Shown here in pieces: positions 7,330-28,700 of a stretch of 33,648 bases of DNA. Position 1 is the first letter of the stretch, and every line of letters starts with the position of its first letter. The notes beneath the pieces are model-generated. The model did no database searches. It worked only from the letters and a program-made list of their open reading frames with translations, and was not told where the DNA came from. Position numbers and translations under genes: made by a program. The stretch is from Welwitschia mirabilis (Eukaryota). The DNA lies in assembly GCA_051453625.1 (NCBI GenBank), contig JBOZIK010000001.1, positions 34,439,858 to 34,473,505 on the forward strand. The letters run 5' to 3'.

Positions 7330-7739
7330 NNNNNNNNNNNNNNNNNNNNNNNNNNNNNNNNNNNNNNNNNNNNNNNNNNNNNNNNNNNNNNNNNNNNNNN
7401 NNNNNNNNNNNNNNNNNNNNNNNNNNNNNTGTAAACATTGCTCTTAATCAATTTTTGTAATGAAACATTTTTCTTTGTTCACTTTTGTTTGTTTGTCAGA
7501 ATATTTTATCTATCTATATTTTCAAATCTAACATTTCTTTACTCACCTTTGCACTTCATTTCTTAAGTTATTCAAATTCAAAAATACCCATCATCTACCT
7601 TCTCACTTCCATCTGCTTTCTTTACTTTATTATCCAATATGGGACGTATTATTTTTCTCGGCCGGGTACGGGAAGGGGGGGTGGAGAGGGTGGGATGGTG
7701 GGGGGATGGGGGGGGGGGAGGGGGAGGAACCCATTTTCA

Positions 7740-9040
7740 TGGCTCATTTTTAGTTATTTCAAAGCTTTCATAAGACATAATTTAAACATTTTACTTCATA
7801 CACATTATGCATTACATGCTATTTTGCTATGAGATGTGTTTTATGAGCCTGTTTTATAATTTTCATATTGATTTTTTTAAAAATAAATTGGCTTAGATTT
7901 ATGGTTTTTTGCCTGGTTTTTATCAAAGACTGACAAAAGCTAAGTGAGGGGCTATGTTGTGCTGCCAATTTGTGGTTATTTGATGGAGTTTTATGAGCTA
8001 TTTTGCAGGACATTTACATAGGTTTAGGTGAAATTCTGAGGATATTGGAGAATCAATAGAAGATCTCGGAAATGTACAATCCTTACTAAGATTTGAGGAA
8101 TTTAAGGAACATTCTGATACTCATAGCTATAAAAGAAGAATTTTGATAGAAAAGGCTAGCTTTTACTGATTTGGATGTTAAAGAAGGCCATCGTTCCCTC
8201 TGTCATCCCCACAATAGGCAGGACGATGATAACATTTTATGCTGACGTAGACTACTGAAAAACTACTAAGTTATCATTTTGAGTTATCTTTTGTAATGAG
8301 ATGTCATCCCCATCATTGTTTCGACAACAATAATGATGACACTGATATTGTAACCAACTCCGATAGCCAACCCTTAACCATTTCATCTATTTCTTATCTG
8401 TAAAAGAGCGCGTATTACACCACTTTCTATTTGTCATTTTTGAGTTTGTAATTCTATAAATAAGACCCCTTTTGACTCTCCTCTCTATCTTCATTGCATT
8501 GGAAATTCTCGCGATAGGAGATCAAAGGGCAGAAGATCCATCTCGAGCGTTACAGAAAGATGTTCACTTGGTGGAGCATTGTGTATCCTCCATTGAGTCC
8601 CAACTATTTTATAACCTATATATTATTACTTATTAATATAAACTCTATTTTCATGTTTGCATATTAGTTTGTTAAATGTTCCTTATGGTTTATGTTACCC
8701 TTGATCTGGTGGCAATTTCATTGATGATATAAATCATTAAAAGGGTAGTCTTTGTTAAGGCTAAAAAAAAGTAGTTTAGTTTCATTTTGCATTGCACTTA
8801 CATTTAGTTTCATTTTGAATTTGCATTACATCCTTTATTTTCTACATTATTTTTTAAGCTTCTGTTACTTTACTTTGTGAAAAGTAATCCTTAGTCTCAT
8901 CTCATAATCTTCAACAAGAATAAAACAGTTGGGTTTACTCCCACTCAGACTAGTGAGTCATATTATGTAAGAAATCTATTTTATTTATGAAATGATAGAA
9001 TCTTTTTGAGTATAAAATGCTTGCATAAATACACACCACA
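7740..9040 (+). repeat. LTR of the same family in opposite orientation, abutting integrase (solo or 3' LTR of a nested insertion)
   Basis: Ends ..GCATAAATACACACCACA at 9040, the reverse complement of the window start. Aligns with 32340-33648 (GGACATTTACATAGGTTT, GTATCCTCCATTGAG). No PBS follows and integrase sequence resumes at 9041. Left boundary obscured by a gap and low-complexity sequence. Confidence 0.8.
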
Positions 9041-9880
9041 ACAAAGTTCAGAAGGTAAAAATCTAAGTGAAATATGCCAAGCAATATGTTAAGTTTATAG
9101 CACATCATTAAGTTTGAGAGACCAAGATTTCTCAATTTTGGAAATGAGTTTTTGGAGTATTTTCTTAATCTCTCTATTATCATTCTTAGATTAACCATTT
9201 ATTTCAGGGTAATAGGCATTTGCAATTCTATGTTCACATTGTACAAAATTATGAAGTGAGTACCTTGGTCACTAATTAAAATTCTAGAAAAGCTAAACCT
9301 ATGGAATATATTGGATTTTAAAAAGGAGCACATGGTTTTGGCATCATTGATTTGAGTAGGAAAACCCATTTTGTGACATAGTCTACAGCTACCAAGATGT
9401 AATTCTTGTTGCAAGAAGATGAATTAAGAGGGTCTATAAAGTTTATTCCCCAACAATCAAAAGGTTCACATTGAAGGATAGGTTGTAAGAACATATCATG
9501 AGATTTTGTTAGGCTTCCAAAACGTTGACATGCATCACATCTTCATGCATGATCAAAAGAGTCTTTGAAAAGGGTAGGCCAATAGAAGCCAGCATGAAAG
9601 GTTTTGATGATCATTTTTTAGCCATTAGAGTAACCTCTACAAACATTATCATGGTAAAGGGAAAGAATGTTAAGCTGTTTCCACTCTAGCACACACTTAT
9701 GCATGATTTTATCTTTATATCTTCAATATATGTATGACTCATTCCATTCATAATCTCCTATTCTATAGAGAAACTATTCTTTAGTTATAAGTCCAATGTT
9801 GGGGGGTTTTAAAAGTGATAAGATAGTTTAAAATATTAGCATACCAAGGAGTACCATGTTGATAGGATATAGCATATAAT
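9041..9880 (-). pseudogene. Gypsy integrase zinc-binding region and core (copy B), truncated by the LTR
   Basis: PWYANI; HAGFYWPTLFKD; CDACQRFGSLT; CEPFDCWGINFIDP; FLKSNIFHRFSFSRILISDQGTHF; NREIKKILQKL..WSLKLNDVL. Confidence 0.92.
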
Positions 9881-9969
9881 TCATGGATGTAAAAAAATTG
9901 TTCATTAGGAAAGAAAACCTCAATAATAAGACTGGAAGAGGAATGTAAAGGATTCCTTTCTTGAGGGAT

Positions 9970-10340
9970 TTTTGAAAGATGATCAACAACATAATTTTAT
10001 TTACCTTCTTTATCTATGATGATTAAGTTGAATTCTTCCATTAGAAGTATCCATGAAATAATTCTAGCATTTAAATCTATTTTTTTCATAAGATAGTAAA
10101 TGGCTACATGATGGGAATAGACATTGGTATGAAAACCAAGAAGGTACTATCTTAGTTTGTTAAGGAAAAATATGATAGAAAGGATTTCCTTTTTAATGAT
10201 GATATAGTTCAATTAAGCTCCTCAAGGGTTTTACTAATGTAATCAATAAACTTGTATTCCTTTTTATGTTTTTATCCTAAAACTCCACCTATTATAATAT
10301 TGCTATCATCACACATTAGTTCAAAATTTATGATCTAATT
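9970..10340 (-). pseudogene. Gypsy RNase H, decayed
   Basis: FELMCDDSN..GGVLG; KEILSIIF; ARIISWILLMEEFNLIIIDKEGK*NYVVDHLSK. Confidence 0.88.
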
Positions 10341-11440
10341 GAGTTCTTCTATAATGTGTTCGGAAGTGAGTTTGTCCTTTATATTTTCAAAGGCATTTTG
10401 AAAATCTTCACTCCAATAAAATTTGAAATCTTTTTTAAGAAGGGAATTAAGAGGTTTACAAATCTTGACATAGTCCTTAATTAATCTTCTATAGAATCTG
10501 GAATGGCTAAAAAAGGATGTTACTTATTTGACATTAGTTAGAAGAGATAGGTTCTAATGATATCTATTTTCGAAGGGTCCATTATAATACCATTACAAGA
10601 AATGTAATGACCAAGTACAATCCCACTCCTCACAAGAAAATTACTTTTCCTCCAACTAAGATGAAGGTCACTCTCTATACAATGGTCAAGGACATTTTCC
10701 AATATTTCTAAGATTTGTTTAAAAGAGTTATCAAAGATAGGAAAATCATCCATGAAGATCTTAATAGAATCCTTAATAATATCTAATAAAATACCCATCA
10801 TGTCTTTTTGGAAGGTTTATGGAGTATTACATAGGCCAAAGGACATTCTTCTAAAGACAAAAGTAGAAAAATAAAAGGTGAAAGTTGTCTTAGATTGATC
10901 TTCATTGGCAATGAAAAATTGGTTATAACCACTATATCCATCAAGGAAGTAATAATAAGCATGACCTAGGATTCTATCAAGATGTTGATCAAGAAAGGGA
11001 AGGAAAAAGGATCTTTTTTGATTACATTATTGAGTTTCGTAAAATTAATGCATACTTGCCACTTTTACCCCTTTTTGAATACTATAGTAAGAGGGCTAAT
11101 CTATTTACTATCTAAAATGGCATAAATGATACATATACCAATAATTTTAATAATTTTATCCTTGACTACCTGATTAATAATAGGACTAAGTCTTCTTTAA
11201 GGTTGCTTAATGGGTTCAGCATTGTCCTCTAGGTAAATTTTGTGTTGAATAATATGAGGAGGATTAACGCTAAGATCTTTATGAATCTAAGTAAAAGCTT
11301 CTATTTTTGAAGTGAGAAGTTGAATTAAGGCTTTTTCTTGAGAAGGATGAAAATGAGAACTAATATTCAATGGCTTATTAGGATTATTATTCAAGAAGAT
11401 GTATTTCAAATCATTGGGTAGGTCTTTAAGTTAAAGATCA
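10341..11440 (-). pseudogene. Gypsy reverse transcriptase, decayed
   Basis: LKDLPNDLKYIFL; YYYFLDGYSGYNQ; KTTFT..FRRMSFGLCNTP*TFQ; KIFMDDF catalytic motif; LSWRKSNFLVRSGIVLGH (ORF 10538-10801). Confidence 0.95.
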
Positions 11441-11799
11441 CTTTCATCCTTTATAGTTGTGGAAAAACCATCTTGATGTAAAAGATTTTTAATGGATCTT
11501 ACATATTGAATATCATGATTGAGTATGGGTTGAAAGTACTTATGAGAATCATCATTAAAAGAATGGTTTAAGAGATCTTAATTGTGATTATAAGGATTGG
11601 AGTAGTTTAAATATTTAAGAATAATAGAAGATTCATCCTCATCATCAAATAATGTAGAGTTATGTAATGAAAAAATCCTTTCTTATAAAGGATAATGTTG
11701 AACTAACATATAAGATCTAATCTTTTCTTCCACGTCTAATTTAGTTCATGTGTTTTTCTTAACAACACTAAATACTATAATATTAAACTTTTTATTGCC

Positions 11800-12170
11800 T
11801 ATATATGACATTCCATCATCCCTATGCAAATATCAACAACACAGTGGGTTGTTGTATAAAAGATTCTTCCTAAAAGTAGAGGGTATCCTCCATTATGGTT
11901 AACCTTAATGATGATCACATCTATAGGATATAAAGCTTTCTAAATTTAAATTAATAAGTATTTAATTATTTCTACAGGTTTTTAATTATTGCATTAGCTA
12001 ATTCCAACACTATTATAGTAAGTTTAATTCTTCCTTCTAATCCAAACATTCTACAAATGTGTAAAGGCATAATGTATCCACTTGCTCCAATGTATATTAA
12101 GGTTTTCTTGATTTTCTCATTTTCCTCTAAAACAACACAAATTATGGTTGTCATTGGATCTTTAACCATA
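11800..12170 (-). pseudogene. Gypsy aspartic protease, decayed
   Basis: KDP..TLIYIGASGYIMPLHICRMFGL..LELANAIIK (consensus ALCDLGASINLMP..LQLADRS); PLLLGRIF. Confidence 0.8.
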
Positions 12171-13805
12171 AGACATTTTTAAGAAAATAAGTTGAAAAGG
12201 GATTGTGTAATAAACACTTTACTTGGGATTATTCTCTTTTGTTTCCTTCTCACTAAGTCCTTCCAAATTTTTTTGTACTTGGGGTTTTCTTAAAGGATTT
12301 TTCAAAAGGATAGGTTAATAGTGACATCATTTATAATTACCTTCAAGTACCTATCATAAGTTGGATTGGTGTTTAATATATCCATTTATGGTGTAGTCTT
12401 CTTCTTTAGATATTATTGGTAGAGTTAAGAGTAGAATGAAAGTTTATTTGATTAAGAATTCCAACATCATCATCTTGAGGTACTTCCTTGTCTTTGTGGA
12501 AAGAAGCTAAGGATTATTCATGGGGAATAGGATCATATCCACTTCTTCTAACTAGTTTTCAATCTTTCTTTACATTATTTAAATTTGGATTAGTTTGGGT
12601 GGCAAGTGATCCTTGTGATCTTTGATTTCCTAGCATGTTTTATCAAAGGAGATTAATCAAATTTTCTAAGTTCTTGTTCTAATTTTATAGAATTTCATTT
12701 ATGGTATCTTGTGTTTTTTTAAATTCTTCCATTATTTTCCTACAAGAATCATTACTATTATAGTTAGAAAAATTGGATTACGCATTATGGCCTCTGAATT
12801 TATTATCAAATAAGGGTTTGAAAGATGTTGAAGCTTCATTATTTCATGGTGGATATTATTGGTTGATTCTAAAGTTGTTTGGCCTTTGATTGAATGCATA
12901 AAATGCATTAAACATGACCTCTCTACAAGTTGGTAAAGCTAGGCATTCTTTGGTAGAGTGAGAGTTTTCATCGTATATTTTATAATGNNNNNNNNNNNNN
13001 NNNNNNNNNNNNNNNNNNNNNNNNNNNNNNNNNNNNNNNNNNNNNNNNNNNNNNNNNNNNNNNNNNNNNNNNNNNNNNNNNNNNNNNCCTTCATTGAACA
13101 TGACCTCTTTACAAGTTGGTAAAGCTAGGTATTATTTGGTAGAGTGAATATTTTCATCACATATTTCATAGTGGTTGTGTTTATTTAGCAATTTTACATT
13201 AGTTAATGTTGTTGTGTGACTCTCTTAGGTACTATTAAGATCACTAAGTAGGGTGTTAACCTTTGGTTGTTTTTCTTCATGTTACACTTTTTTCGAATCT
13301 CTAAGCATTTCACCTATAGGTCTAGTATCTTTACATGTACNNNNNNNNNNNNNNNNNNNNNNNNNNNNNNNNNNNNNNNNNNNNNNNNNNNNNNNNNNNN
13401 NNNNNNNNNNNNNNNNNNNNNNNNNNNNNNNNNNNNNNNNNNNNNNNNNNNNNNNNNNNNNNNNNNNNNNNNNNNNNNNNNNNNNNNNNNNNNNNNNNNN
13501 NNNNNNNNNNNNNNNNNNNNNNNNNNNNNNNNNNNNNNNCTTTTATGTCTTGAGGAATAATTTTCATAAGGTTATTCTTAGAAATTAATTACTTCCTTTA
13601 TTCTAATCCTCATGAATATCTCATTTATGAATCATTTGATAAATACCTCTTATACTTAATTCAACTCTGAAGGATTTGGTATTTGATGATTTGAAGCCAA
13701 TTTTTCACTTTTTCTCTCCAGGTAAAGGAAAAGATGATCATGTAAGTTATATCTAAAATTTTGTTTTTCCTATTTTCTAAAGTAAGGATGAGTTGTTCAA
13801 TCTTA
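12171..13805 (-). pseudogene. Gag region, copy 1 (gapped)
   Basis: MIIFSFTWREKVKNWL (retrotransposon gag motif) and a knuckle-like ICDENIHSTK*Y segment; homologous to 13920-15430. Confidence 0.8.
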
Positions 13806-13919
13806 NNNNNNNNNNNNNNNNNNNNNNNNNNNNNNNNNNNNNNNNNNNNNNNNNNNNNNNNNNNNNNNNNNNNNNNNNNNNNNNNNNNNNNNNNNNNNNN
13901 NNNNNATAACACCAATAGT

Positions 13920-15430
13920 AGTTGCTTCTAGATCTTTAAACTTAAGACATTTTTGAGAAACTAAGTAGGAAATATATTGTACAATGAATACTTTACTTGA
14001 AATTACCCTCTTTTATTTTCTTTTTACTAAGCTCTTTCAAATTTTGTTGTAATTGGGGTTCTCTTGAAGGATCTTCCAAAAGGGAAGGTTGATAGTAACA
14101 TCATTCATAATTGCTTTCAAATACTCATCATAAGTTGGATTGTTGTTTAATCTTTCTAGCCATGGAATAGTCTTCTCATTGGGATGTTGGTTGTTTTTGT
14201 TGATTTAGGAAAGTTTAATTGATCAAGAATTTCAATATCATCTTTATGAGATTTTTCCTTATCTTTATGAATAAAAGTTAAAGGTTTTTCATAAGAAGCA
14301 GTATTATGTCCACTTCAAGTTACTACTTTCCAATCTTTCTCTGTATCATTTGAGTCTAAAATAGTTTGAGTGGCAAGTGATCCTTAAGGTCTTTAATTTT
14401 CTAACATGTTTTATCGAAGGAGGTTAATCAAATTTTTTAAGTTTTTACTCTAATTTTCTAAGATTTCATTAATGGTATCTTGTGTCATTTTGAGTTCCTC
14501 CATCATTTCTCTATAGGGATCATTTTTATTATAGTTGAAAAAATTGGGCTGAGAGTTATGACCTCTATATTTGTTGTTAAATGAATGTTGTAAAGATGTT
14601 GAAGGTCCATTATTTCTTGGTGGATATTATTATTTACCTCTAAATTTGTTTGGCCTTTGATTGAATGCATAGACTTCTTTAAATATGGCCTCTCTATAAG
14701 TTGGTAAAGCTGGGCATTCCTTGGTAGAATGATAGTTTTCATCACATATTTCATAACGGTTGAGTTAATTTAGTAATTTTGCATCAGTTAAATCTTTTAT
14801 GTAACTCTCCAATGTACTAGTAATATCACAAAGTAGGTTTTTATCCTTTGTTTATTCTTCTTCATGTTGCACTTTTTTAAGTCTCTAAGAATTTCACCTA
14901 TAGTTCTAGTGTCTCTACATGTAGTTTTTGACTGATTTTGACTTCTTTTTATAAGGTCCTGTCTAAAGTTAAATTGAGTAAATCTTCATCACATAAAAAA
15001 TCTATCATTTATCTGGTTTAATCATTCAATCCACTATATAAGTGATTAATAAGTTCTTGTTTTTCAAACTCATTCACTGAGTTGAATGACATAGTAATCA
15101 AAAATCTTTCATATGTTTAGGAATAATCTTCATAAGGGTATTGTTGAAAATTTATTACTTCTTTTCTTCTTATCCTCATGACTATCTCATTCATAAACCA
15201 TTTGATAAAGAATTCTTGTACATTATTCCATGACTTAAGACTTCTATGTGGAATGGTTTTAGGCCAAGTTTTTGCTTTTCCTTTTAAGGTAAAAGGAAAG
15301 GTTATCATGTAGGTCCTATTTGAAATTTTTTTTTTTGATTTCCTGAGGTAACAATGAGTTGTTCAATATCAGCTATGTGTTGGAATGGGTCTTCATTAGG
15401 TTCTCTAGAAAAGGTAGGATAGGCATTTAA
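13920..15430 (-). pseudogene. Gag region, copy 2
   Basis: PTFSREPNEDPFQHIADIEQL; MITFPFTLKGKAKTW..SLKSWNNVQEFFIKWF..RKEVINFQQ; ICDENYHSTKECP. Confidence 0.88.
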
Positions 15431-16071
15431 TTTTTTTAACTCTACATCATCTCCAATGGGTTTTGAAGTTTCCTCTTTTTATTAGTTAACATATCCTTTA
15501 GAGTGATATTTAAACTAGAGGCTTCTAATGTTTTATGTGATGACTTGTTGAATGCCATAGAGGTAGAATAATTAGGATGGTTAGGCTAAGAAGAAAATGT
15601 AGGATTTTTATTAGAACTTGATTGATTTTCAAAAATTTTCAAAGATTTAGGAGTATGTAAATAAGAAATAGTAAATGTAAAATAATCATCTTACTTAATT
15701 AAAGAACTAAACTTTTCTTTCTCATATTAAGTTCTTGAATTAAAGTCCACCAAACCTTATTTGATTACTTCTTGAAGGAAATGTCTTTCATGAATGTGTT
15801 TGCCTTTGTTTCTATTTATTATTACCCTGTAAGATCAAATTATATTATACAAACTTTTTTACATTCAAATGGTAACAATGTCTAGGATCACTTGAATGTG
15901 TAAGGAGTAAGATACACTAAATGAATGTGGTACTCACTTAAATCACACAAAGTAAAAAGTGTAGATCAAGTATATTGAAAATAATAATTAATGTGGTAAA
16001 CCCTAAGATCACACAAAGTATAAGGGATAGATATAACAAGGATTGACAATCTCCTCCACCTATGTTGACTG

Positions 16072-16159
16072 CCTATATAGTGATGTGTACGTGATGGGAA
16101 GACACTAAAACAATTACCTATATAGTAGTGTATGTGACGGAGAGACATTGAAATAGTTA
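16072..16159. repeat. Two-copy ~45 bp tandem repeat in the retroelement 5' leader
   Basis: CCTATATAGTGATGTGTACGTGATGGGAAGACACTAAAACAATTA followed by CCTATATAGTAGTGTATGTGACGGAGAGACATTGAAATAGTTA. Confidence 0.75.
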
Positions 16160-16873
16160 ATTGAAGGAGGTGTTTACCTTAATAGGCTAGTAATTGCTAC
16201 TAGATAGGCCCCATAGGGTAACTAATACATTCATGCTGTGGGTTCTCAACATGCATCTCAATACCACCCTGATCATATATGAGGTTTCTACCTATTACTT
16301 ACTTTGATGGTATATGAGGTGGGTACAACGATGGTAATGAGGTCAGCTGGCACATTTGGATGCTACTTATAGTGCTTAGTGATTACTAACAAGGAAGCCA
16401 TCTTCCTTAGGATAGCTTGGCTAGGTAGCTTTAGTTCAAGAGCAATAGTGACTAGCCATAGATATGAACCTGCTTGTAAGACATGGGTGCAGATACAATA
16501 ATTCCCATTATTGGGATTAGGAGAAAAGGTAGATATGACACATGAGAAGAAGTAGGCCTAGAAAAATAATCTTAGAAAATATAAAATTTTGAAAATAAAT
16601 TTAAAAAATGATTTCTAAATATAAATTACTAAATTAAAATATAAATCCCTTAAATTAAGATTGCACTTGAATCTAAAGAAAAGAAAATTGCAAGAAATTA
16701 AAAATAAAAATTACAATGTGCAAGGGAGGGAGATTAAAGTAAACTCCAAATGGATAATCAAGCAATTACAAGTAGATCCAAGAGGATAAAATACAACACT
16801 ACTCATAAACAATTTGAAGTAACTTCAAGATACTTACTTGAGTAATGATAATCGTTTTTTTATATTGAAGTCT

Positions 16874-16891
16874 TCATCAACAATGATGCCA
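16874..16891 (-). promoter_or_regulatory. Decayed primer-binding site, tRNA-Asp type (Athila hallmark)
   Basis: Minus strand TGGCATCATTGTTGATGA vs consensus TGGCGCCGTTGCCGGGGA: 7 differences, 6 of them C>T or G>A. Lies just inside the LTR at 16900. Confidence 0.7.
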
Positions 16892-16899
16892 AAATTTCA

Positions 16900-17679
16900 C
16901 AATGTGTATTTTTGCTTTCAATTCCAATATTTTAAAGATCAAATTTGACTTGAAACACTTAAAAAGATGATAATCTAATTACACATAATACACATTTGCA
17001 TAGTGGGATCAACCCAAATGTCATACACTTAGAGAAGACTTCTANNNNNNNNNNNNNNNNNNNNNNNNNNNNNNNNNNNNNNNNNNNNNNNNNNNNNNNN
17101 NNNNNNNNNNNNNNNNNNNNNNNNNNNNNNNNNNNNNNNNNNNNNNNNNNNNNNNNNNNNNNNNNNNNNNNNNNNNNNNNNNNNNNNNNNNNNNNNNNNN
17201 NNNNNNNNNNNNNNNNNNNNNNNNNNNNNNNNNNNNNNNNNNNNNNNNNNNNNNNNNNNNNNNNNNNNNNNNNNNNNNNNNNNNNNNNNNNNNNNNNNNN
17301 NNNNNNNNNNNNNNNNNNNNNNNNNNNNNNNNNNNNNNNNNNNNNNNNNNNNNNNNNNNNNNNNNNNNNNNNNNNNNNNNNNNNNNNNNNNNNNNNNNNN
17401 NNNNNNNNNNNNNNNNNNNNNNNNNNNNNNNNNNNNNNNNNNNNNNNNNNNNNNNNNNNNNNNNNNNNNNNNNNNNNNNNNNNNNNNNNNNNNNNNNNNN
17501 NNNNNNNNNNNNNNNNNNNNNNNNNNNNNNNNNNNNNNNNNNNNNNNNNNNNNNNNNNNNNNNNNNNNNNNNNNNNNNNNNNNNNNNNNNNNNNNNNNNN
17601 NNNNNNNNNNNNNNNNNNNNNNNNNNNNNTAGTTTTTTAAACTATTGTATTTATTATCCTTCCTATTATTCTTGTGACA
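16900..17679 (-). repeat. 5' LTR (mostly N gap, right end unresolved)
   Basis: Homologous to 4169-4906 on both sides of the gap; PBS adjacent. Confidence 0.75.
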
Positions 17680-17941
17680 TAGCAGACAACCAATCTAACT
17701 TTCAACTAATTCTTGACATGTGTTGATCATCCAACCTATGCTAACTATCATCTTGGGTGTTATTCCAACCACATGAGGCATGTTAGAACCTATTTAATTA
17801 CTCTTGTTATATGTCATTCTATAATGGTTATCCTAGTGGTAGACAAGAAAAATATTAGATCTTATCAAACAACTATCATTTTACATAAGTCATATGAATG
17901 ACAAGGTAGATGACTAGTTTCTCACTACTAGAAATGAACTC

Positions 17942-18215
17942 TTTTAGGGCATTTATTTTAATACATACCTTAAGTAAAGTGCCTTATAACACTTTTATTA
18001 AATAAATCTTATAAAAATCCTTTTATGGCATTTGCTTAAACAAACACCTTAAAAAGCCATTTCGAATTTATTCCCTAGCATTTATAAAAAAACGTCTTAA
18101 TAATAAGACATGTATTATGTATTAAAGGAGATAAAAAGTATAGTATTTAAGGCATTTATTTAGATGAAAATATTAAATAATGTAATGGTTTTACCCCTAA
18201 ATAAAAAAGGCCTTA
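17942..18215. repeat. CACTA left subterminal repeats
   Basis: Variants in both orientations: TAGGGCATTT, AAGTGCCTTA, ATGGCATTT, AAACACCTTA, AAACGTCTTA, TAAGGCATTT, AAAGGCCTTA. Confidence 0.85.
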
Positions 18216-18365
18216 ATATTTTTAATAGCAGATCCACTTAATATGACATTCTTAGCATGTAACTTCTTCATTAAATGTTAGTTTTATGCCAAATCACACT
18301 TTCTCAATAGAGTTTTTAAGGAGAAAGAATATGAAGGTTTCATTACTATGTTTTGCATCTTTCAG

Positions 18366-19102
18366 ATGGAGCAATAGCTTCTTGAAGTCTACATTTATAT
18401 CTACAATTTAGGGGAGTAACTTTATTCTCAGTTTCATGTATTTAAAAATAATTGGTGCTTTCGATTGATACATCTTCATATTCTAAGGTTACATCATGAA
18501 ATTTTCTAATGATAAATGCTGCTAATCATTTTGTGAATGCTGAAAAACATTTCTTGTAATTTTGAATGCTGTGAAATACTAATGCAAATCCCTAATGCAC
18601 TTTTTTTGTTGATTTTTGTTTCCTTTTATTTCCAGCGATTTTGTGATCACTTGGGATGAATTGACGCAGAGTGAAGAGTATTTTAAAAACTTGTTTAAAG
18701 CAAGGCTAGGAAATAATGCCTATGATGATTTGAACTATTGAGGATCATCTAGAGATAGTAGAGGTAAAATAACAGAGCTAGAATATTGGCTTTTCTCTTT
18801 TCCATAACTTATAAAGTAGACATCTTGAGTTAACTAGCAGTTACTTATATTAAAAAAGACTAACATTTTGATATGTAATTCGGTAGTCATTGATGTTTAC
18901 TATTTCTTGAAGTTATTTCAATATCCTATAATTATTTTAACTTTTTTTTAACGTTTTTGTAGTTCACTACTTAAACAATCTTTATCATTTGGGAAGAATT
19001 GATAATTCTATTCTTTTATTATAATTATTTCCTTTTTATAGATCAAATCCTTAGATAACATAAAGAAAGTTAAGGCCAGAAAAGAATGATACATTAACTC
19101 AA
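18366..19102 (+). pseudogene. Unidentified captured gene fragment, three exons (18366-18415, 18636-18763, 19042-~19102)
   Basis: Polypyrimidine-AG acceptors and GT donors with matching phases. Spliced: MEQ*LLEVYIYIYNLGD|DFVITWDELTQSEEYFKNLFKARLGNNAYDDLNY*GSSRDSRD|QILR*HKES*GQKRMIH*L. All stops can be explained by C>T. Confidence 0.6.
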
Positions 19103-19710
19103 GTTGATCATTTGTGAATCTTTGTCATTTCAAAAGCAGATATCCTAAAATTTTAGTTAAGATGATTAATAATGGTAATATCAATAAGACACTCCTATGT
19201 TATTTATTTGAAGTTTCTAGGTATTTCTAATTTTTCTTTTTCACTTCAAATTATTTCCTTTGTGTACTCCTAAATATTCAGATGATAGCAAAATCGCTCT
19301 AAAATAACTTATTGACTTTAAGAAATAAAATAATCCTAAATTTTTTTATAGTTTATGTAAATGTTTTTTCTAACTGTTACTCTTCTTTTGATTGTACCTA
19401 ATTGAGTGTCTAATAAAATTCTTGACCTGATCCTATATTGCAAATGGTATTCATAACAAAATAATGTATCTAATAGAATTCTTTTTCCTAGTATTTTTGA
19501 TTTTAAAATAATGTGAATCAAAATCTCTCAACTTAGCAAATATCATTGTTTCTATGCTTAGTATACAAGTGCATTGCTAGTAGCTCTTTCTTAAAATGTA
19601 TCATAATAGATATTCAATCTTAAATATTTCATTAGAAAAAATCTATTAATGCTAATTAGGTTTCTAATGGAGTATCTGTATTAAAATTGTTTGTGATTGA
19701 TATGATCTAG

Positions 19711-20073
19711 GTGAAGCAAAGGTTTGTGAAAATGAAGAGAGTTTATGCAGCACTTAAAGTTTTAGCTAATGCAATTGAGCATCTGATGAGAGAATTAGCC
19801 TCAGAGGAAGGAGATGTTTTTATACAAGATGAGGTAGCTACATAGTATTTTTCTTCCATGAATTTATTTGGATGTTTGTTTCTAGTGTTGTTTCATTTCT
19901 TGCATCTTATGGGCTCCATAATAGAGTGAAAAATTAACATTATTTTTACTCATTTTATGTAGTTGAAAAAGAAATGCAATTGAATAAGGTACTAATAGAA
20001 GAAACATTGACATACAACATTGTGCCTAAGGATGTATAGTCAATTAAAAAATACAATTGATTTAATTGCAGAG
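19711..20073 (+). pseudogene. CalS: Callose synthase (CalS9/CalS10, GSL10/GSL8-like) N-terminal fragment, two exons (19711-19833, 19963-20073)
   Basis: VKQRFVKMKRVYAALKVLANAIEHLMRELASEEGDVFIQDE|LK/EMQLNKVLIEETLTYNIVPKDV*SIK/NTIDLIAE resembles the recalled CalS9/10 stretch ERKTVKRKRVFATLKVL..EE|LK..D...EDLIAYNIIPLDA..TNAI..FPE. GT-AG intron 19834-19962; exon 2 has compensating frameshifts. Confidence 0.85.
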
Positions 20074-21021
20074 GTGGCTCTCCTCATATATTGAAAAAAA
20101 ATTAGTTTTTTATTCTGCTACTTGTGTAAAGATTTGCAATTGATTATGTTATTGCATGGGTATTTGAAAGCTTATTCTTTGTAGTCCATAAGATTATTAT
20201 TTAGTTGTGATAAAACCATATAATATGCTAATATCCAAAATGAACTTATCTCTTCTTTGCCTATTACATCTAATGCACTAAGAATGTTGTTGCATGTNNN
20301 NNNNNNNATCTGTTATATTAGTTAGTTGCCCAAAAAGCCACTTTATAGATAAGTATAAAATTTTGAAATGATCATATGCATATTTTTCAAATAGCCCTAG
20401 TGCTCTAGATGACATTCAAACAATAGTGTATGACCTCTTAAGTGTAATTAAATAAAAGTTAATTACATCTTAGAATCATAAAAGTCAATTTAATTTTTAT
20501 TTTATCCTTTTCTTGACTTCTAGCTGAAAACATGCAAGGGGATTTCTTATGTAGCATATCTACAGTTTTAACAATAAAATTTTGTTTTAGCATTTANNNN
20601 NNNNNNNNNNNNNNNNNNNNNNNNNNNNNNNNNNNNNNNNNNNNNNNNNNNNNNNNNNNNNNNNNNNNNNNNNNNNNNNNNNNNNNNNNNNNNNNNNNNN
20701 NNNNNNNNNNNNNNNNNNNNNNNNNNNNNNNNNNNNNNNNNNNNNNNNNNNNNNNNNNNNNNNNNNNNNNNNNNNNNNNNNNNNNNNNNNNNNNNNNNNN
20801 NNNNNNNNNNNNNNNNNNNNNNNNNNNNNNNNNNNNNNNNNNNNNNNNNNNNNNNNNNNNNNNNNNNNNNNNNNNNNNNNNNNNNNNNNNNNNNNNNNNN
20901 NNNNNNNNNNNNNNNNNNNNNNNNNNNNNNNNNNNNNNNNNNNNNNNNNNNNNNNNNNNNATATATAAGGTACCTATGTTTAAAGGTACTGTGTCTTTCC
21001 TTATTTCATAATACATCTTAC

Positions 21022-21302
21022 TTCAACCACGTCCACTAGTTCTGACATTGTTGCACTATCACCTCCCATAACTATACATTCAGCACTCTTCTAGTTTCTA
21101 GAATAATATTTTGGGGTATTTTTCTATCAACATTTATTTATCATCTAAAGCTGATTATCCATATAGATGCCTTCAGATAATAATAGTACAAAACTACCAA
21201 AATGAAACAACTAATTTCTCATGCTAAGGAATTATATGTGTCAAGTTCTAGCTTTACTCAGATGTAAAGAAGAAAGCAATGTCCTATAGTGCAAATGTAG
21301 AC
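21022..21302 (-). pseudogene. Unidentified captured gene fragment, two exons (21302-21258, 21097-21022)
   Basis: Phase-2 compatible junction, donors GTAAAG and GTAAGA. Spliced: STFAL*DIAFFFTSE|N*KSAECIVMGGDSATMSELVDVVE. Confidence 0.55.
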
Positions 21303-22057
21303 CTTCAGTTTATCATCTTTAGAAACCTTAATGATTACTAGCATATGGATAACAATACACCATTTGTAATCAAACACTTAAATGAAACTATCAAAATAGT
21401 TCTATAACTTTTGCTTCCAATCTTTAAGTATAAATGTTTCATAAGCTAAAAGTCACTAATTTAGAAGTGAAAAAACTTTGTGAACTTTCTAATTTATTCT
21501 AGGTGGTTTTATTTAACATGGTAAATGATTAAAGTAATCCCAAGAGATATCCAACTAAAAACATACACACACACTAGTGCAATGGACAAATGAATTTTAT
21601 CCTATCTTTTTATGTTATGCATATTCTTGCTATGTAAATTTATAGAAACTAAACAAGATAATAGTAATCTGATTATAAATACCATTCTTATTTCTAATGC
21701 TTAGAGAAAAAGAATTTATCTAATTTAGTAGGTATTATCTTATGTAGTTTAAAAAATCTTAAGCAATGAAAACAATTAGATTCCATCCACACTTTGGTAA
21801 GGTATGTTTATGAGAAAGTCTCTTTAGATCTTTCTGCATACTTGAGATTATTAGTCAAGCATATGAGGTTAAATCTTTTTTAGAGTAGTGATATTGATCA
21901 TTTGAAAGTTACTTATTATGAAGTATTTCTTACTGTGAAGTATTACCTTAGTTTTAGAAACTAGTGGTTTTAACATATTCAATAATTATGAGGTTAGCAA
22001 ACCTCCCTTAGAATGATGAAATTTTTTTACAAACTATTATTTTACCTTGATCTATAG

Positions 22058-22429
22058 GTTTCCATAAATGACACCATATTAAGCATTGCTACACTAGATG
22101 AGTATGACCTTTTTCATGAAGGGTATTGGTATTAATTAGAAGTTTTAGCTTTGGTAAGGTTTTCAATCCTCTCTAATGTGCTTTTTACCTTATCTTTTAC
22201 TTACCTTGGTCGTGACTCATGCTTGCTTCAGCTAAGCATGACTAAAACTTTAGAAGATTTAATTTATTTTTAGTTCATTTTCCTCTTTCTTTTAGAAGAG
22301 TCATATGACTAAGTTACCTTGTATGCAGTTCTTGGTAAACCCCAACCTCTAATTTCTGAAGAAGTTGTTAAAGAATAAGTTATTTAATGGAAAAGTTTTC
22401 TATGGTCTTCCTTTTATCTCTCAACTTAG
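22058..22429 (+). pseudogene. ABCG: Full-size ABCG (PDR) transporter fragment, two exons (22058-22211, 22329-~22429)
   Basis: VSINDTILSIATLDEYDLFHEGYWY*LEVLALVRFSILSNVLFTLSFTYLG|LLGKPQPLISEEVVKE matches the PDR-associated region motif LF.E.YWYWIGVGALLGF..LFN.LFTLAL.YL.PLGKPQA.ISEE. Phase-1 GT-AG intron 22212-22328. Confidence 0.9.
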
Positions 22430-22600
22430 GTAATTGATTTTCTCTTCTAGAATTTGCAAATACATATTGTTCCTAAAACATTTGTGCCATTTATTCATTA
22501 TCAATTCTCCTTTGAAATGTGGATTCAATAGCCTAGTATGCATTCATAGTGTTCATAAAACTAAATATCAAACTATCCGTGTTGGAATGAAATTTTATAC

Positions 22601-23022
22601 CAGTGGATGGAAAAGCTTAAATAAAATCCTTATTGATAGTGGAGCTGCTAGTTAAAACACTGATTGATATGTTAACCTATATTCCTAGCCAATCTAATAA
22701 GCTTGTAATGAAGAAAATGAGATACATTAACTTGACCAGCAAAATACATTACATGTTATAATGAAAAAAATTTCTATAGCCAATGTACTCTAAAATGAAT
22801 TTCGGGATTACCCATAATGCACTGATGTGAAATGGTTTTTGATAAAAACAGATACATAGATGATTCATTTGATAGACTATGGAATGTTAAGAAATAGGAA
22901 TTCTTCTTTACTACTATTACTACTAGAGCAATTTGTCCACTGGAAGAGTAAGTGACAAGCCTCCTTCCAAGGTAATGCAGACTACCATTGTTAGCAAATA
23001 GACATTTTCATCCACTCTTGCA
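22601..23022 (-). pseudogene. Unidentified captured gene fragment, exons 23022-~22912 and 22676-22601
   Basis: After acceptor CTATAG: ARVDENVYLLTMVVCITLEGGLSLTLPVDKLL followed by a TAG/TAA run (possibly decayed Gln codons). The second AG..GT-bounded 76-bp block has an ambiguous frame. Confidence 0.5.
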
Positions 23023-23455
23023 CTATAGGCAAGGAAGAGCCAATCCTATAGAAATCTCTATTTTGCATTGTATTTTTTAGAAACTAAAGTGCTAAATGAA
23101 AAGATGTAAGGGAATTCAATTTGTATCATGATAACAATGAGCTCTATTACTACATTTTGCATTGTATTTTGCAAAAAATGAAGTGCTAAACATTTTAGAT
23201 ATTAAACATCTCTTATTAATGTGTGCTTTCCTTAATGTTAACTTTTATTTCTAGAATTAACTTTCCTTTTGGTACATATGCTAACTAAAAGGAAAAGCTA
23301 ATATAAATGTGCATCTGCGCTTCTGTTTGCTTTCTTTTCTTTTTCTTTTCTTTTCTTCCTTTGTTTTTTTTGCATTTTTTCCATGGTTATAGATTAATTC
23401 TATAGTTATAATGTAATTTCTTAGTTTCTGACATACTAGTATTTCAAATCTATAG

Positions 23456-23606
23456 GCCACACTCACATGAGTGTTCTGGAAGTGGTTTGGATGGTGAACT
23501 TTAATTTATAAGTTGGGAAGAATCTCTCATTTCCACTCAATAGGGAAAAACAATGGACTATTCTACCCCACTGATGGATTTATTATATCATGATGTAACA
23601 ATTGAG
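23456..23606 (+). pseudogene. RDR1: RNA-dependent RNA polymerase (RDR1-like) catalytic exon, 151 bp
   Basis: PHSHECSGSGLDGEL*FISWEESLISTQ*GKTMDYSTPLMDLLYHDVTIE vs recalled RDR1 RPHPNECSGSDLDGDIYFVCWD.ELIP....PMDY.P....LDHDVTIE. Acceptor CTATAG, donor GAG|GTAAG. ECSGS and HDVTIE favour RDR1 over RDR2 and RDR6. Confidence 0.88.
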
Positions 23607-23996
23607 GTAAGGTTGTGCTTTATTTTAAATTATTTATTAAATGCATTACGTGTACTAATAAGATAGAAAAACATTGAGCCACACTGACAATGTAGTTAGG
23701 CAGTTTTATTAATTGTCATTTATTATGTAGGTATCTGATTATCTTTATATCCACCCTTCAATCCACAACACTTTATTTTATATCAACAATATCAATTTTT
23801 GTTGGAACCATTCATTTTTTCTTTGGAGACAGTATTTTAATTTGCATATTTAATCTTGTTTTGATTTATGATGTAAAATAGCTTAAAGGATTTTAATTGT
23901 AGTTCATCAATTTAACTATTGAAACATGAATTTAGTATGGGGACCTTGCATTTTCCTACTATCCCTTGAGCATATCTTCCAAAAGGATTTAGGTAC

Positions 23997-24106
23997 CTAT
24001 GTAAGATAACTAGCTTCCCAGATTTGACAAAACAGAAGAGGTGTTTCATAGGCATGACATTACTAGGTTCAGAATATATGATATCCATTCACAAAATGGA
24101 GCACAT
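23997..24106 (-). pseudogene. Possible additional captured exon
   Basis: 110-bp higher-GC block bounded by TTAG and AG|GTAC. Candidate reading CAPFCEWISYILNLVMSCL*NTSSVLSNLGS*LSYI; not recognised. Confidence 0.3.
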
Positions 24107-25199
24107 CTAATCTTCTATGCTTAGGAGAATAATCTAGAGTACACAATTAATACATAAGTAGTATCTTATATTTGTACATGCACAGTCAAGGATGTCAACC
24201 TAAGGAGCTAAGAAATGAAAGTAAGACATGTAATGAAAAAAATTACTGACGTAAATTAAAGCAAACACATCAAAATCTCAGGTAAGAAAGTGGATAATTG
24301 ATGAAGGAGACAAATAATTATCTTTTAACTATAGCCATATTTACAGCTTATGCTTCCTGATGCTTCTTCTTTGCACATATAGTAACTTACAACTAGTTTA
24401 CTACCAACATATCCATGCAGTTTTTGATGCCTTGCTTTTTCTTATTAATTTTAAATTAATTATTATTCATTTGAAATTATAATAACTAAGATTAGCTTAT
24501 CATGTTTATGAAGATCATTCTTTGTTTAGCATTCACAGTCATTATTGTATCTTAAAAATCAATTATGACAAGATCCATAAGTGCTTTTAAAGTAATCTTT
24601 ACTTGAATTATGACATAGGTAATCTTGAAGGGGTATCTAATAAAATCTAGAAATTTTGGCTTTGTAGAGTCTATTATCTGCTTTACTCTNNNNNNNNNNN
24701 NNNNNNNNNNNNNNNNNNNNNNNNNNNNNNNNNNNNNNNNNNNNNNNNNNNNNNNNNNNNNNNNNNNNNNNNNNNNNNNNNNNNNNNNNNNNNNNNNNNN
24801 NNNNNNNNNNNNNNNNNNNNNNNNNNNNNNNNNNNNNNNNNNNNNNNNNNNNNNNAAATAGAATGAGATATTGAGAAGGAAATTCCATAAGCTATAAGAA
24901 GGCTCTCAGAGATTAAGAGTTAAATGTGAATGAATTCCACATCCTCTAGATGCTCCTTTTCTCTTCTCTTAAAGTTATAAAGGTTTATGACTACTAATTT
25001 GTTTTATGCATAAAAGGCCTAACCCTTTCTATACATCAAAATTTAGCCCTAGGTTTATCCTTAAATTAAAATGTAACATTAGAGATTGGCTAATGTTAAA
25101 AGATTCTTGACCTAGGGAAAGCATCTGTAACTAATCATTTAATATGGACATGTCAGCATTTTTTAGAATCACAATAACAGATCATTTGATAACTACACC

Positions 25200-25485
25200 T
25201 TAGGGGCATTTATTATATTAATATCTTTTGATGAGGTGATGCCTTTTGAGTAGTTTATTTGATAAAATGCCTCATTTATGAAAATAAATGGCTCAAAAGG
25301 CCTTTTAAGGCGTTTTCGAGAAAAATGCCTTGAAATCCTCTTAAGGTGTTTCTTTTAAAAATACCTAAAAGACCTTTAAAAGCCTATTGGCTTGGTTTTT
25401 TTAAAGCATTTTATAAAGAAATGCCTTAAAAGTATTTAAGGCATTTTTAGGACGTTTTAAGATGTTTTAGAAATGCCTTAAAATC
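25200..25485. repeat. CACTA right subterminal repeats
   Basis: Many copies in both orientations: GGGGCATTT, AAAATGCCTC, TAAGGCGTTTT, AAAATGCCTTG, TAAGGTGTTT, AAATGCCTTA (twice), TAAGGCATTTT. Confidence 0.9.
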
Positions 25486-26445
25486 CTATATTTCTTGTAG
25501 TGTCTCTTACTCAAATGCACTTTAATCATCATCCTTTATTCCACTATTATAATGGAGTAACTTCCCATTTTGGAAATCATTGCATTTCATGATCTACATG
25601 GAAGCTTTGAATAATTTTCATAAATCCATGAAAATCCTTTCAATAGGACCTAAACATGTGCTTCATAAGTATGTCAAATAGGTCAATTTGGCTTTACAAC
25701 ACTAATGTTATAGACATTTTTATTACCAATATTTCATGTGAACTCTATTTTTCTTTTCTCAAGATGATAACTTTTATTCTTATAAAGTGAATCATGAATT
25801 ATGGAGTATGAATTCTTTTACAATTGTACTATTGGTTTCCATGTACTTTGAATTGTTAGTGGCTTAATAATATAAATAAATTGATACATAATATACAAAA
25901 CTAAATTTACAAACATATTATCACACACATTCAAATAAAACTTTATGGTTGTTGTGGAGGCAATATCCATTTTATAATATTTTCTTAGAAAGTAGAAACT
26001 ATAATTAAAATTCTTTATTCCCTTTTGTTTTATTCATTTTTATATGAAAAAGAGAAAAATCAAGTCTAGTGAAACCTTTATGATAGTTAATAATGTGACC
26101 TAGAGCTTTTGAAAATAAGCCTTTATCTATAATCATGAAGTTTTAAATGAATGTATTTTTAGGATTTTATAAAATGCCTAGCTACAAGTATGAGTATCTA
26201 CATAACATTAGTATCAAAACAACGGGAAAATGAGAAACATAGATAGGATTTCAAATTTTTCAATTTAGATCCTTTTACCTTTGTTTTATAGATTGCATAG
26301 AACATATTTAGATCCCATGATGAATAATATTAGAATTTTATATTTTTGATTTTGTTTCTAATAAAAAATCAACTACTATTTGGGTACTATTATATGTTTA
26401 AAATTAAGAATAAATATGTGATTATTAGAATTTGAAAATATTCTT

Positions 26446-26651
26446 TATTATAGTGGATTATGCTTGAACTTAGAAATATTGATTGTAATAGAACACATTA
26501 CTTATTATGAAAGTTAGGCATTCATTATGAAAATGTTTCTCATACTAGTGCAATTGTACTTAATGAAGAGTTAAACTTTTATAAAATGTGATGTGCATTA
26601 ATATTAATATTTTAGCCAATACTAATAAGTTCAAGCATAATATCCTATAAA
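26446..26651. repeat. Fold-back inverted repeat (MITE-like)
   Basis: Perfect 16-bp inverted pair ATTATGCTTGAACTTA (26457-26472) / TAAGTTCAAGCATAAT (26626-26641), extending imperfectly to arms of ~70-80 bp. Confidence 0.75.
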
Positions 26652-27133
26652 ATAATAAATAGACATTACCATTAATAAAGAATCTTTTCATGTTTCTATC
26701 ATTATATTTGTATGATTTTATTTCCAAACATTACCACTAACTAGATAGCAGTTATTTCTAGTAGAAAATTAAATTGAACATTTGAAATGCTGTATAGGTT
26801 ATTAAAGCATCCACATAAAGAAAAAGATAATGTAATGGAGTTACTCTAATTTTGGTTCCTTGTAATTTATCAGTTTATTATGTTTAGTAAGACCACTATG
26901 ATAGATATTTATGAGCATATGTCTTTAATTATGGAATATGAATTAATACATGTTGATAAGGCTCAATACAAATATTATGACAAACATCCATAATTGTTTT
27001 CTTAGTCTTTATGAGTTTTCTTGGGTTTTGTTTCATTTGGTATTTGAATGTATGGAGAAGATAAAAAATCATAAACTTAATAAGAAAAAATAACTTTGTG
27101 TTCTTAAACAAATTTCTCAAAATTATACTATAG

Positions 27134-27279
27134 ATTGCCTAACAAGTAATGTGAGATGGGAGGATGGTATGCATTAGAATCCAACCTCATCCTTAGGTAC
27201 TAGGGAATCCATTCTAGTCTTGTCTTTTAAAACAATAGTTACAATGGGGTAGCTCAAGCCTAAGAATTTTTATTTGAAA
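27134..27279 (+). pseudogene. Unidentified exon-like fragment, probably cargo of the second CACTA
   Basis: CTATAG acceptor and GTAATT donor; CLTSNVRWEDGMH*NPTSSLGTRESILVLSFKTIVTMG*LKPKNFYLK, both stops TAG (possibly from CAG). Confidence 0.45.
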
Positions 27280-27879
27280 GTAATTATGTAACATAATATT
27301 TCTTAATTCTTAAGATGCATAATGTGCTTCTTAAATCTAGTTCATAATATGTTACTAGCTTTCTGTTGCAATTCCTCTCATTTTTGTAAAACAGCCACTA
27401 GTGTTTATATGAAACTAGATGTCTTAGGTAATAAGTAAGAATATGATAGAAATTAGTATTCTTATTTCTAAGATAAACTATCATTTATTTATAATATGAT
27501 CATTTTATCATCTTTTTCTTATGTGTCATCTATGTTGTTATCAAAATGATTAAGAAGTACTAGCTTGTGTTATAGCAAGATTAACATGATTTGGACCTTA
27601 ACATGATTATTTTGGATACCTAGAGCTAAATATACTGAATATTAATGTTAGTGCTTTTTCTTGACTTTTATTAGTAGATGTCTCAAAAAAAATATATGAT
27701 CTAATTAGTGTCTTTTTGACTAAAGATGAATTTTCCTTATTAAAGTCATGTATTAGTGTTTGGTTTATACTATGATATTTTGTGAAACAAGTTTGGTTAT
27801 GTTTTATTATGAAGTAATGGCAACTTTTATTGAACTTCTCAACATCATATTTCTTAAGAGAGTCCTTAAATTGACATTA

Positions 27880-28216
27880 GACTTTTTATGATGTTTTTCA
27901 ATAAACACCCTAAAAATCTAGTTTTATGATATTCTTAAGGCTAATTTAGAAGCATCCTAAAAACCACTTTTTAGGACATTTTCTAGAGTCACTTTAAAAA
28001 TAACCTTTTAGATGTTTTTATAAATGCCCTAGCAAAGATATTTTAAGACATTTTTGGGTGGTTTTTTAGGGTAGTCTTAAAAATGCTATAAACGGTTTAG
28101 AGCAATTATGGAAAAGCTTTCAAAGAATTTTAAAAGCATTGGAAATCATTTAGACAATTTTCAAGGCCTTTTAAGGCATTTTTAAAATACTTTAAGAGCT
28201 CAAATTTCTAGTAGTG
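27880..28216. mobile_element. Orphan right end of a second CACTA of the same family
   Basis: TIR ATTTCTAGTAGTG (28204-28216) preceded by subterminal repeats (TAGGACATTTT, AAATGCCCTA, TAAGACATTTT, TAAGGCATTTT). Flank is AAA; no separate left TIR found. Confidence 0.88.
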
Positions 28217-28399
28217 AAAGAGGTATTCAGCTATGTTAAAGTAGTCACCATTTCAAATAATTCTAATCATATGAAGATGACTATGATAGGCATTGATTAC
28301 ATGAGATATGGATGCAACATTTAAAATTATAAGCCTAAAATTATAACTTAGTTTTTATAGAAGTATTTATAAGGTAGGATTTCTTCCCTAATTGGTCTA

Positions 28400-28700
28400 T
28401 ATTCAACATTAAATTGAACATGACAATAGCTAAGGGTTTGATAAGCATATAAGATAAGCTATCATGATGTTTAACTCCTCACAAAGTATTGAGAAATAGA
28501 TTACCCAAAGATCATCTTCATTAATTGTTGCATTTCAATAGATCTCAAAAATAGCCTTTGGGAAGTAGTTGGTACCATCTTCCTTCAACAAACAATTCCA
28601 ATTTTTTACTTCAATTTTATTAAGATAAAAGGTTGCAAAAAAATTAAAGAATGATGTGAAGATGGATTTTACTAGAAACGGTTCTGTTCTTTCACTTATG
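28400..28700 (-). pseudogene. Athila-type extra (env-like) ORF remnant
   Basis: FFATFYLNKIEVKNWNCLLKEDGTNYFPKAIFEIY*NATINEDDLWVIYFSILCEEL resembles the W..L....YP.LV.EFY.N motif of plant retroelement extra ORFs; lies downstream of the gag-pol remnant at 30670-31900. Confidence 0.45.

Follow-up and report, generated by a model that had tools for sequence, protein, structure and literature searches.

Multi-fragment gene-carrying CACTA elements have been described since the mid-2000s, and in En/Spm a TnpA-like protein binds the subterminal motifs and a TnpD-like transposase cuts the CACTA termini. In soybean, the CACTA element Tgm-Express1 (5.7 kb) is described as carrying both exonic and intronic segments from five unrelated genes (PMC1947982), comparable elements are named from morning glory, wheat, maize and Arabidopsis (PMC6379663), and among the Pack-TYPE superfamilies of maize the Pack-CACTAs are reported to hold the most distinct loci per element (PMC8903248). 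The route of capture is reported to have been watched in Arabidopsis, where closely neighbouring insertions share one orientation, their inner ends are lost through faulty excision and the outer ends mobilise the interval (PMC6379663; PMC8903248); the tandem-insertion model as given in PMC6379663 predicts close same-orientation insertions together with one-ended derivatives. A link to host silencing genes is described for rice, in which CACTA elements carry pre-miR820, targeting OsDRM2 (PMC3459959). Here we analyse a 33,648-nt stretch of Welwitschia mirabilis DNA (contig JBOZIK010000001.1, positions 34,439,858 to 34,473,505; hereafter the window, to which all coordinates refer) and conclude, with a probability of roughly three in four, that positions 17923-25502 are one insertion of a non-autonomous Pack-TYPE CACTA element with decayed genomic pieces of at least three unrelated host genes.

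The element spans 7580 bp between inverted CACTA termini, with TCT on each side. At the left junction, tct is followed by CACTACTAGAAAT, which places the element start at 17923, and at the right junction, ATTTCTTGTAGTG is followed by tct, which places the element end at 25502. The left and right terminal inverted repeats (TIRs) are identical at 12 of 13 bases (CACTACTAGAAAT versus CACTACAAGAAAT). In the whole window, CACTACWAGAAAT at up to one mismatch has 4 matches versus 0.24 expected, a number reached in 0 of 100 shuffles, and three of the matches are exact, namely both element ends and the minus-strand positions 28204-28216. A match with 1 mismatch at 10591 (CATTACAAGAAAT) was considered as a left end and rejected, as it lies inside a reverse-transcriptase-like open reading frame and is without subterminal motifs.

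The subterminal regions are densely occupied by an 11-bp repeat. Specifically, AAATGCCTTAA at up to one mismatch occurs 17 times in the window versus 2.1 expected (shuffle maximum, 5), with 4 copies at 17944-18216, 6 at 25305-25481 and 2 at 28043-28181. At up to two mismatches, 25 copies fall in the 988 bp of the three end regions versus 26 in the 30,926 bp elsewhere, corresponding to densities of 25.3 and 0.84 per kb, respectively. Three features by which the CACTA superfamily is recognised are present, i.e., TIRs of the form CACTA...TAGTG, a target-site duplication (TSD) of 3 bp, and direct and inverted subterminal repeats near both ends. A CACTA (En/Spm) element is typified by this combination of CACTA termini, subterminal repeats and a TSD of 3 bp.

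The element encodes no recognisable transposase. A Pfam scan at E ≤ 10, for which the stops in the six frames of 17923-25502 were replaced by X, reported only PDR_assoc and RdRP and no transposase family; the 540 unknown bases (N) within the element are too few to conceal a CACTA transposase gene. No transposase domain was found in the plus frames of the right flank. Inside the TIRs there is thus no transposase family but significant likeness to host coding genes, as in Pack-TYPE elements. The claim of the preliminary description that this is a non-autonomous CACTA element of 7580 bp with both ends and a TSD is borne out by the 12 of 13 matching TIR bases, the TCT/TCT flanks, the subterminal repeats and the six frames free of any transposase family.

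The cargo with a named donor consists of single exons of three unrelated genes, all on the plus strand and within 2.1 kb. The piece of AMP deaminase (AMPD) was recognised in a PDB sequence search by its match to residues 469-507 of the Arabidopsis enzyme (2a3l_A; E 6.7e-4, 20.2 bits) at 21544-21660, and the piece of a PDR-type transporter was recognised by Pfam through PDR_assoc (PF08370; E 4.9e-8, 33 bits versus a cutoff of 24.9) at 22064-22210. The piece of an RNA-dependent RNA polymerase (RDR) matches residues 818-884 of Arabidopsis RDR2 (7eu0_M; E 2.9e-9) at 23448-23648 in the PDB sequence search, and Pfam RdRP (PF05183) reaches E 1.1e-3 on it, under its cutoff. The aligned stretch of RDR2 reads DLDGD, which we take to be the catalytic DxDGD motif, while the element reads GLDGEL followed by a stop. 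Every named piece has in-frame stops, and the cargo is therefore decayed and not coding. Fragments of three identifiable host genes, as proposed from the letters alone, are in this way supported by the Pfam and PDB matches to an AMP deaminase, a PDR ABC transporter and an RDR.

Around the named pieces there are candidates that serve as leads only. Two stretches at 21748-21801 and 21884-21921 are candidates for further AMPD exons, with 0 PDB matches at E ≤ 10 and no NCBIfam family; one at 22329-22379 is a candidate second PDR exon, for which a word-indexed protein search and NCBIfam returned nothing. All three candidates are bounded by AG and mostly by GT. The NCBIfam test covered 6 stretches and returned 0 families. 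In the three minus frames of the element, Pfam recognised no family, and the sole PDB match, to a colicin immunity protein (E 1.1), was rejected as not credible. The unassigned stretch that separates the PDR and RDR pieces contains a 37-bp direct repeat (86% identity), with its copies 94 bp apart at 23060-23096 and 23154-23190.

Public reads placed on 16000-28400 bear on how the cargo was acquired and multiplied. We used two DNA runs as contigs (X1 and X3, which have two organism labels) and two RNA runs as raw reads (X14 and X17); of 14,685 pieces, 211 joints and 1,617 loose-end rows, the placements listed comprise 16, 15 and 24, respectively. Of the 206 X14 RNA reads on the stretch, 183 reach just 90-95% likeness and 192 overlap it with only part of their length; the corresponding figures in X17 are 68 of 81 and 81 of 81. 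Nearly all RNA reads placed on the stretch derive from other loci. No sign of transcription of this copy was seen, with reads at least 99% alike numbering 2 of 206 in X14 and 0 of 81 in X17 when about a quarter of each run was read.

The RNA reads pile on four patches (E1, E2, the RDR exon and E4) and then run into uniform dissimilar sequence. The reads on E1 diverge at 19709 (X14, 14 reads with agreement 1; X17, 7 reads), and those on the RDR exon diverge at 23454, directly after an AG (X14, 52 reads; X17, 29 reads). On E2, the reads break off at both 20522 and 20556 (X14, 19 reads at each; X17, 5 reads at 20556), and on E4 they break off at both 25119 and 25175 (X14, 20 and 22 reads; X17, 8 and 6 reads). 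The breaks at 19709, 20522 and 23454, the left edges of three of the four patches, coincide with an AG that follows a pyrimidine-rich tract in the element; the edge of E2 at 20556 is without a GT donor. Translated by hand, the loose end at 23454 continues an open frame that ends in G-Q before R-P-H, where RDR2 has G-E-R-P-H.

A break at AG is expected if the element holds an exon with the adjoining intron end while the reads represent the spliced mRNA of the donor. Because the mRNA reads diverge at the AG acceptors of the element, we take the cargo to have been acquired as genomic DNA with introns, and the data favour DNA-level capture over retrocopying. This agrees with the capture mode put forward in the preliminary description, at three of the four patches covered by RNA. 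The further proposal of GT-AG exon clusters on both strands holds in part, in that AG acceptors are present, and GT in places, but the named cargo is all on the plus strand, and the sole hint of minus-strand cargo is the open frame at 24925-24985.

The interior holds several further patches. The piece at 18636-18741 lies in DNA of single-copy depth (8 and 10 in bin 18484-18897) with 0 RNA reads, and an ESM Atlas search with 18637-18738 gave no usable match (scores ≤ 0.84, leads only). For E1, neither a word-indexed protein search nor an exhaustive HMMER search nor ESM Atlas gave a usable homologue. E4 has a canonical splice site at neither of its edges (25119 and 25175), and patch E5 shows differing letters at 24936, 24973 and 24976 in 4-6 RNA reads. 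The tally of the cargo is three named donors and 4-5 patches without a named donor, and the six or more serial captures suggested earlier are not supported.

The DNA contigs reveal that the right end belongs to a large family. The left junction is bridged by single-copy contigs in both of the independent DNA runs (X1 record 1, 17731-18078; X3 record 9, 17731-18126; 2 mismatches each). At least 56 contigs of X1 and at least 64 of X3 (and 32 more at 25501) lose their similarity exactly at 25502 and continue into dissimilar sequence (agreement 0.41-0.44). The summed depth of the last element bin is 4407 in X1 and 7904 in X3, versus 8-11 and 5-7 in the unique flank 25936-27591, so that the right end stands at about 400-1500x single-copy depth. 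These values make 25502 the end of a family that numbers hundreds of copies, although repetition within the element inflates the figure.

The interior is also repeated, to an extent that varies along the element. Summed depth in X1 ranges from 8 (18484-18897) to 108 (23452-23865), compared with 8-11 in unique DNA, and is 35-108 at the cargo positions covered by contigs; in X1 and X3, respectively, 7 and 8 contigs cover 23485, 10 and 9 cover 23752, and 8 and 8 cover 21759. AMPD and RDR are small gene families. Because the depth is multi-copy while these gene families are small, the simplest reading is that the block with the AMPD and RDR fragments was itself multiplied, i.e., transposed after capture; the contigs are too short to tell whether the cargo block adjoins these ends in other copies. 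None of the 16 pieces listed (of 14,685) bridges 25502 or the internal N gaps, and none of the 15 joints listed (of 211) skips 17923-25502 as an empty allele would. An empty site in paralogous flanks, which had been suggested as a check, was likewise not found by self-BLAST of the flanks and the interior within the window, and the same comparison found no inverted copy of the cargo. Joints from 25272-25448 to 28158-28168 were rejected as deletions; their sides of 21-25 bases reflect the likeness of two right ends.

The window differs from the public data at single positions. At 23485 the window has G, but all 7 and 8 contigs and 67 and 35 RNA reads have A, and at many positions (e.g., 19188, 21759 and 22680) every public contig and RNA read differs from the window base. 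Such window-only bases either are changes private to this copy or accession or stem from errors in the assembly.

A one-ended CACTA fragment lies 2.7 kb downstream of the element. Its terminal 13 bases, ending at 28216, are identical at 13 of 13 positions to the left TIR at 17923, so that the pair 17923...28216 has perfect 13-bp TIRs. The fragment contains 7 subterminal motif copies at up to two mismatches and is flanked by AAA, and a partner left end for it was found nowhere in the window. An intact element beside a one-ended neighbour matches the intermediate configuration of the published capture model.

By analogy with that model, we propose how the element may have arisen. Close same-orientation insertions would have lost their inner ends, and the outer ends would then have remobilised everything between them. 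The cargo would have entered at the level of genomic DNA, as exons together with the intron ends beside them, and would now be non-functional. A TnpA-like protein provided in trans is presumed to bind the subterminal motifs; the element, presumably unable to move alone, would have moved by cut-and-paste through the TnpA and TnpD of an autonomous relative.

Several observations weigh against a single insertion with captured genes. The TSD is just 3 bp, and two random 3-mers of the window are equal with a chance of 0.026, a value that bears directly on the TCT/TCT match; in addition, a third end is nearby, so CACTA ends do cluster locally. One insertion is favoured by the match of the flanks and the orientation of the ends, with a likelihood ratio of only about 40 to 1. 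The element contains three internal N gaps (540 bases in total), continuity from end to end is seen in none of the 16 pieces listed (of 14,685), and with multi-copy cargo the scaffold could mix family copies. The named cargo amounts to about 460 bp of about 7040 known bases, and the rest of the interior is mostly AT-rich DNA without assignment. Furthermore, the AMP deaminase match is weak (20 bits), and a word-indexed protein search with the AMPD, PDR and E1 stretches returned nothing at E ≤ 0.01, these pieces being too decayed or too short for such a search. The sole HMMER match of E1 (E 2.2e-4) was judged spurious: it is to a repetitive 1174-aa protein, in 6 stretches, whose own annotation is only a sub-threshold TadZ_N.

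These points bear on three other explanations. The ends could be real while the four contigs between them (17630-20297, 20308-20596, 20961-24689 and 24856 onward) were joined by read pairs across family copies. The three N gaps of estimated size inside the element, none of them spanned among the pieces listed, would fit such a scaffold mosaic, as would the 7-10 contig variants of the cargo per run and the interior depth that varies from 8 to 108; but the TCT/TCT flanks agree and the ends are correctly oriented, and we regard a mosaic as unlikely. Even then, it would consist of copies of the same Pack-type family, and the kind of element would stand. Less likely still, the AMPD-PDR-RDR block could have been carried by another vehicle, either a Helitron or a Pack-MULE that invaded a plain CACTA element, or a block that came to lie between two one-ended remnants. 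Fragments on the same strand are typical of Helitron cargo, and the three named fragments do lie on one strand within 2.1 kb; a one-ended CACTA remnant exists 2.7 kb away. The TSD match, however, argues for a single CACTA insertion, a scan of the interior for a Helitron-like 3′ end (GC-rich hairpin and CTRR) gave only two weak 6-bp hairpins, and no long MULE-type internal inverted repeats were found in the element.

It is highly improbable that nothing was captured, in the sense that the likenesses arose by chance or that an ancient local gene cluster decayed in place. In favour of this explanation, every piece is decayed as well as short, and the scores are modest for two of the three matches (E 6.7e-4 for AMP deaminase; RdRP below its Pfam cutoff). 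Against it speak the RDR2 match at E 2.9e-9, the PDR_assoc match above its gathering score, the single exons of three unrelated genes within 2.1 kb, the RNA reads of paralogous loci that are 90-95% alike, and the multi-copy patches. We therefore retain a single insertion of a Pack-TYPE CACTA element as the preferred reading.

The multiplied RDR exon raises the idea of counter-defence. RDRs make the double-stranded RNA needed for transposon silencing, and each DNA run contains 7-10 contig variants of the RDR patch, at about 10-20x single-copy depth. Conceivably, its many copies may yield transcripts or small RNAs that damp host RDR, much as CACTA-borne miR820 is reported to act on OsDRM2 in rice (PMC3459959), a role that we consider very doubtful; self-comparison of the window revealed the RDR piece of this copy neither in a hairpin nor as an inverted duplicate.

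The element copy sits in retrotransposon-rich, gene-poor DNA; the window, a scaffold interrupted by ten runs of N, has a G+C content of about 28%. To the left, at 6700-15400 on the minus strand, lie decayed genes of long terminal repeat (LTR) retrotransposons, among which the presence of two integrase pieces points to two elements, nested or in tandem. A very high-copy repeat occupies 16414-17241 (summed depth 3800-15800), just left of a 585-N gap, and as the agreement among loose ends at 17041-17044 is about 0.8, further sequence of this repeat probably lies within the gap. To the right, 25503-25738 is repeated (bin 25522-25935 has depth 749 and 349 versus 5-11 in unique DNA), and single-copy contigs resume only from 25739; with its right flank repeated, the element lies beside or inside another repeat. 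The coordinates of all features are collected in Table 1.

Table 1. Features of the CACTA element at 17923-25502, its cargo and its surroundings, in window coordinates.
Feature	Position	Strand	Remarks
Left TSD copy, TCT	17920-17922		Identical to 25503-25505
Left TIR, CACTACTAGAAAT	17923-17935	+	12/13 versus right TIR; 13/13 versus third end at 28216
Left subterminal region	17936-18250		8 copies (≤2 mismatches) of TTAAGGCATTT / AAATGCCTTAA, in both orientations
Right subterminal region	25190-25489		10 motif copies (≤2 mismatches), several as inverted pairs 18-19 bp apart
Right TIR, CACTACAAGAAAT	25490-25502	-	Inverted match to left TIR
Right TSD copy, TCT	25503-25505		Identical to 17920-17922
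AMP deaminase exon fragment	21544-21663	+	2 in-frame stops
PDR-type (ABCG) transporter exon fragment, PDR_assoc domain	22059-22210	+	1 in-frame stop
RNA-dependent RNA polymerase (RDR) exon fragment	23456-23650	+	2 in-frame stops
Exon-like piece	18636-18741	+	Polypyrimidine tract and AG acceptor, 34-codon open frame, stop
Captured exon E1	19711-19833	+	AG acceptor and GT donor; 1 of 6 frames open (41 codons)
Patch E2, 33 bp, matches expressed sequence elsewhere	20524-20556		Left AG acceptor, no right donor; adjoins 364-N gap
Patch E5, few RNA reads	24925-24985	-	Minus strand holds the only open frame of six
Patch E4, matches expressed sequence elsewhere	25120-25175		One frame per strand open or nearly so
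Gap, 10 N	20298-20307		Inside element
Gap, 364 N	20597-20960		Inside element
Gap, 166 N	24690-24855		Inside element
One-ended CACTA fragment, right-type end only	27870-28216	-	2.7 kb downstream, same orientation as element; outside element
Integrase core pieces	6990-7259 and 9202-9423	-	Decayed LTR retrotransposon
Reverse transcriptase	10541-10816	-	Decayed LTR retrotransposon
gag	15120-15362	-	Decayed LTR retrotransposon

Pack-type transposons duplicate and reshuffle host gene pieces and confuse gene annotation. Accordingly, 17923-25502 should be masked as a transposon and not called as AMPD, PDR or RDR pseudogenes. For specialists, the interest of the locus lies in a natural configuration of an intact and a one-ended element and in the multiplied fragment of a silencing-pathway gene (RDR).

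The termini of the element resemble those of known CACTA families. The TIR of En1 (maize En/Spm), given as CACTACAAGAAAA in Table 2 of PMC3193017, shares 12 of 13 bases with the right TIR, and the TIR of FbCACTA1 from Flaveria, given as CACTACTAGAAAA in PMC13369971, shares 12 of 13 with the left TIR. FbCACTA1 is also described with a 3-bp TSD and 9-11 bp subterminal repeats (PMC13369971), whose consensus differs from AAATGCCTTAA. The likeness of the TIRs to En1 and FbCACTA1 is a trait of the superfamily, not a family assignment.

In its composition, the element resembles Arabidopsis Pack-CACTA1a (Catoni et al. 2019), which likewise has CACTA termini, a 3-bp TSD and no transposase, and whose chromosomal DNA of multiple loci has a probable counterpart here. 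The mobility of Pack-CACTA1a was watched in real time, whereas here it is judged from copy number and end heterogeneity, and the species and family differ. The element also has what the packFinder survey of maize and rice (Gisby and Catoni 2022) is described as using to define Pack-TYPE elements, i.e., TIRs and a TSD, no transposase and a match to a coding gene; the pipeline as described also drops singletons by clustering copies. Like the rice CACTA elements with pre-miR820, the family carries sequence of a host silencing gene, here as a multiplied RDR fragment that is without a hairpin in this copy.

Tgm-Express1, which resides in the wp allele of F3H, differs in several respects. Its TIR is of the Tgm type (CACTATTAGAAAA in Table 2 of PMC3193017), compared with CACTACTAGAAAT and CACTACAAGAAAT here, and its donors are different genes. 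It lies in the intron of a gene, with cargo exons spliced into host transcripts, whereas repeat-rich DNA surrounds the present copy, for which the two RNA runs gave no sign of transcription. The cargo had been called a high load in the preliminary description, a view that does not hold up against the five unrelated fragments described in the 5.7 kb of Tgm-Express1 (PMC1947982) and the several loci often reported for maize Pack-CACTAs (PMC8903248). Because Tgm-Express1 and maize Pack-CACTAs carry comparable multi-locus cargo, the load of the Welwitschia element is unexceptional, and the element adds an example, but no new principle, to the gene-carrying CACTA elements already described.

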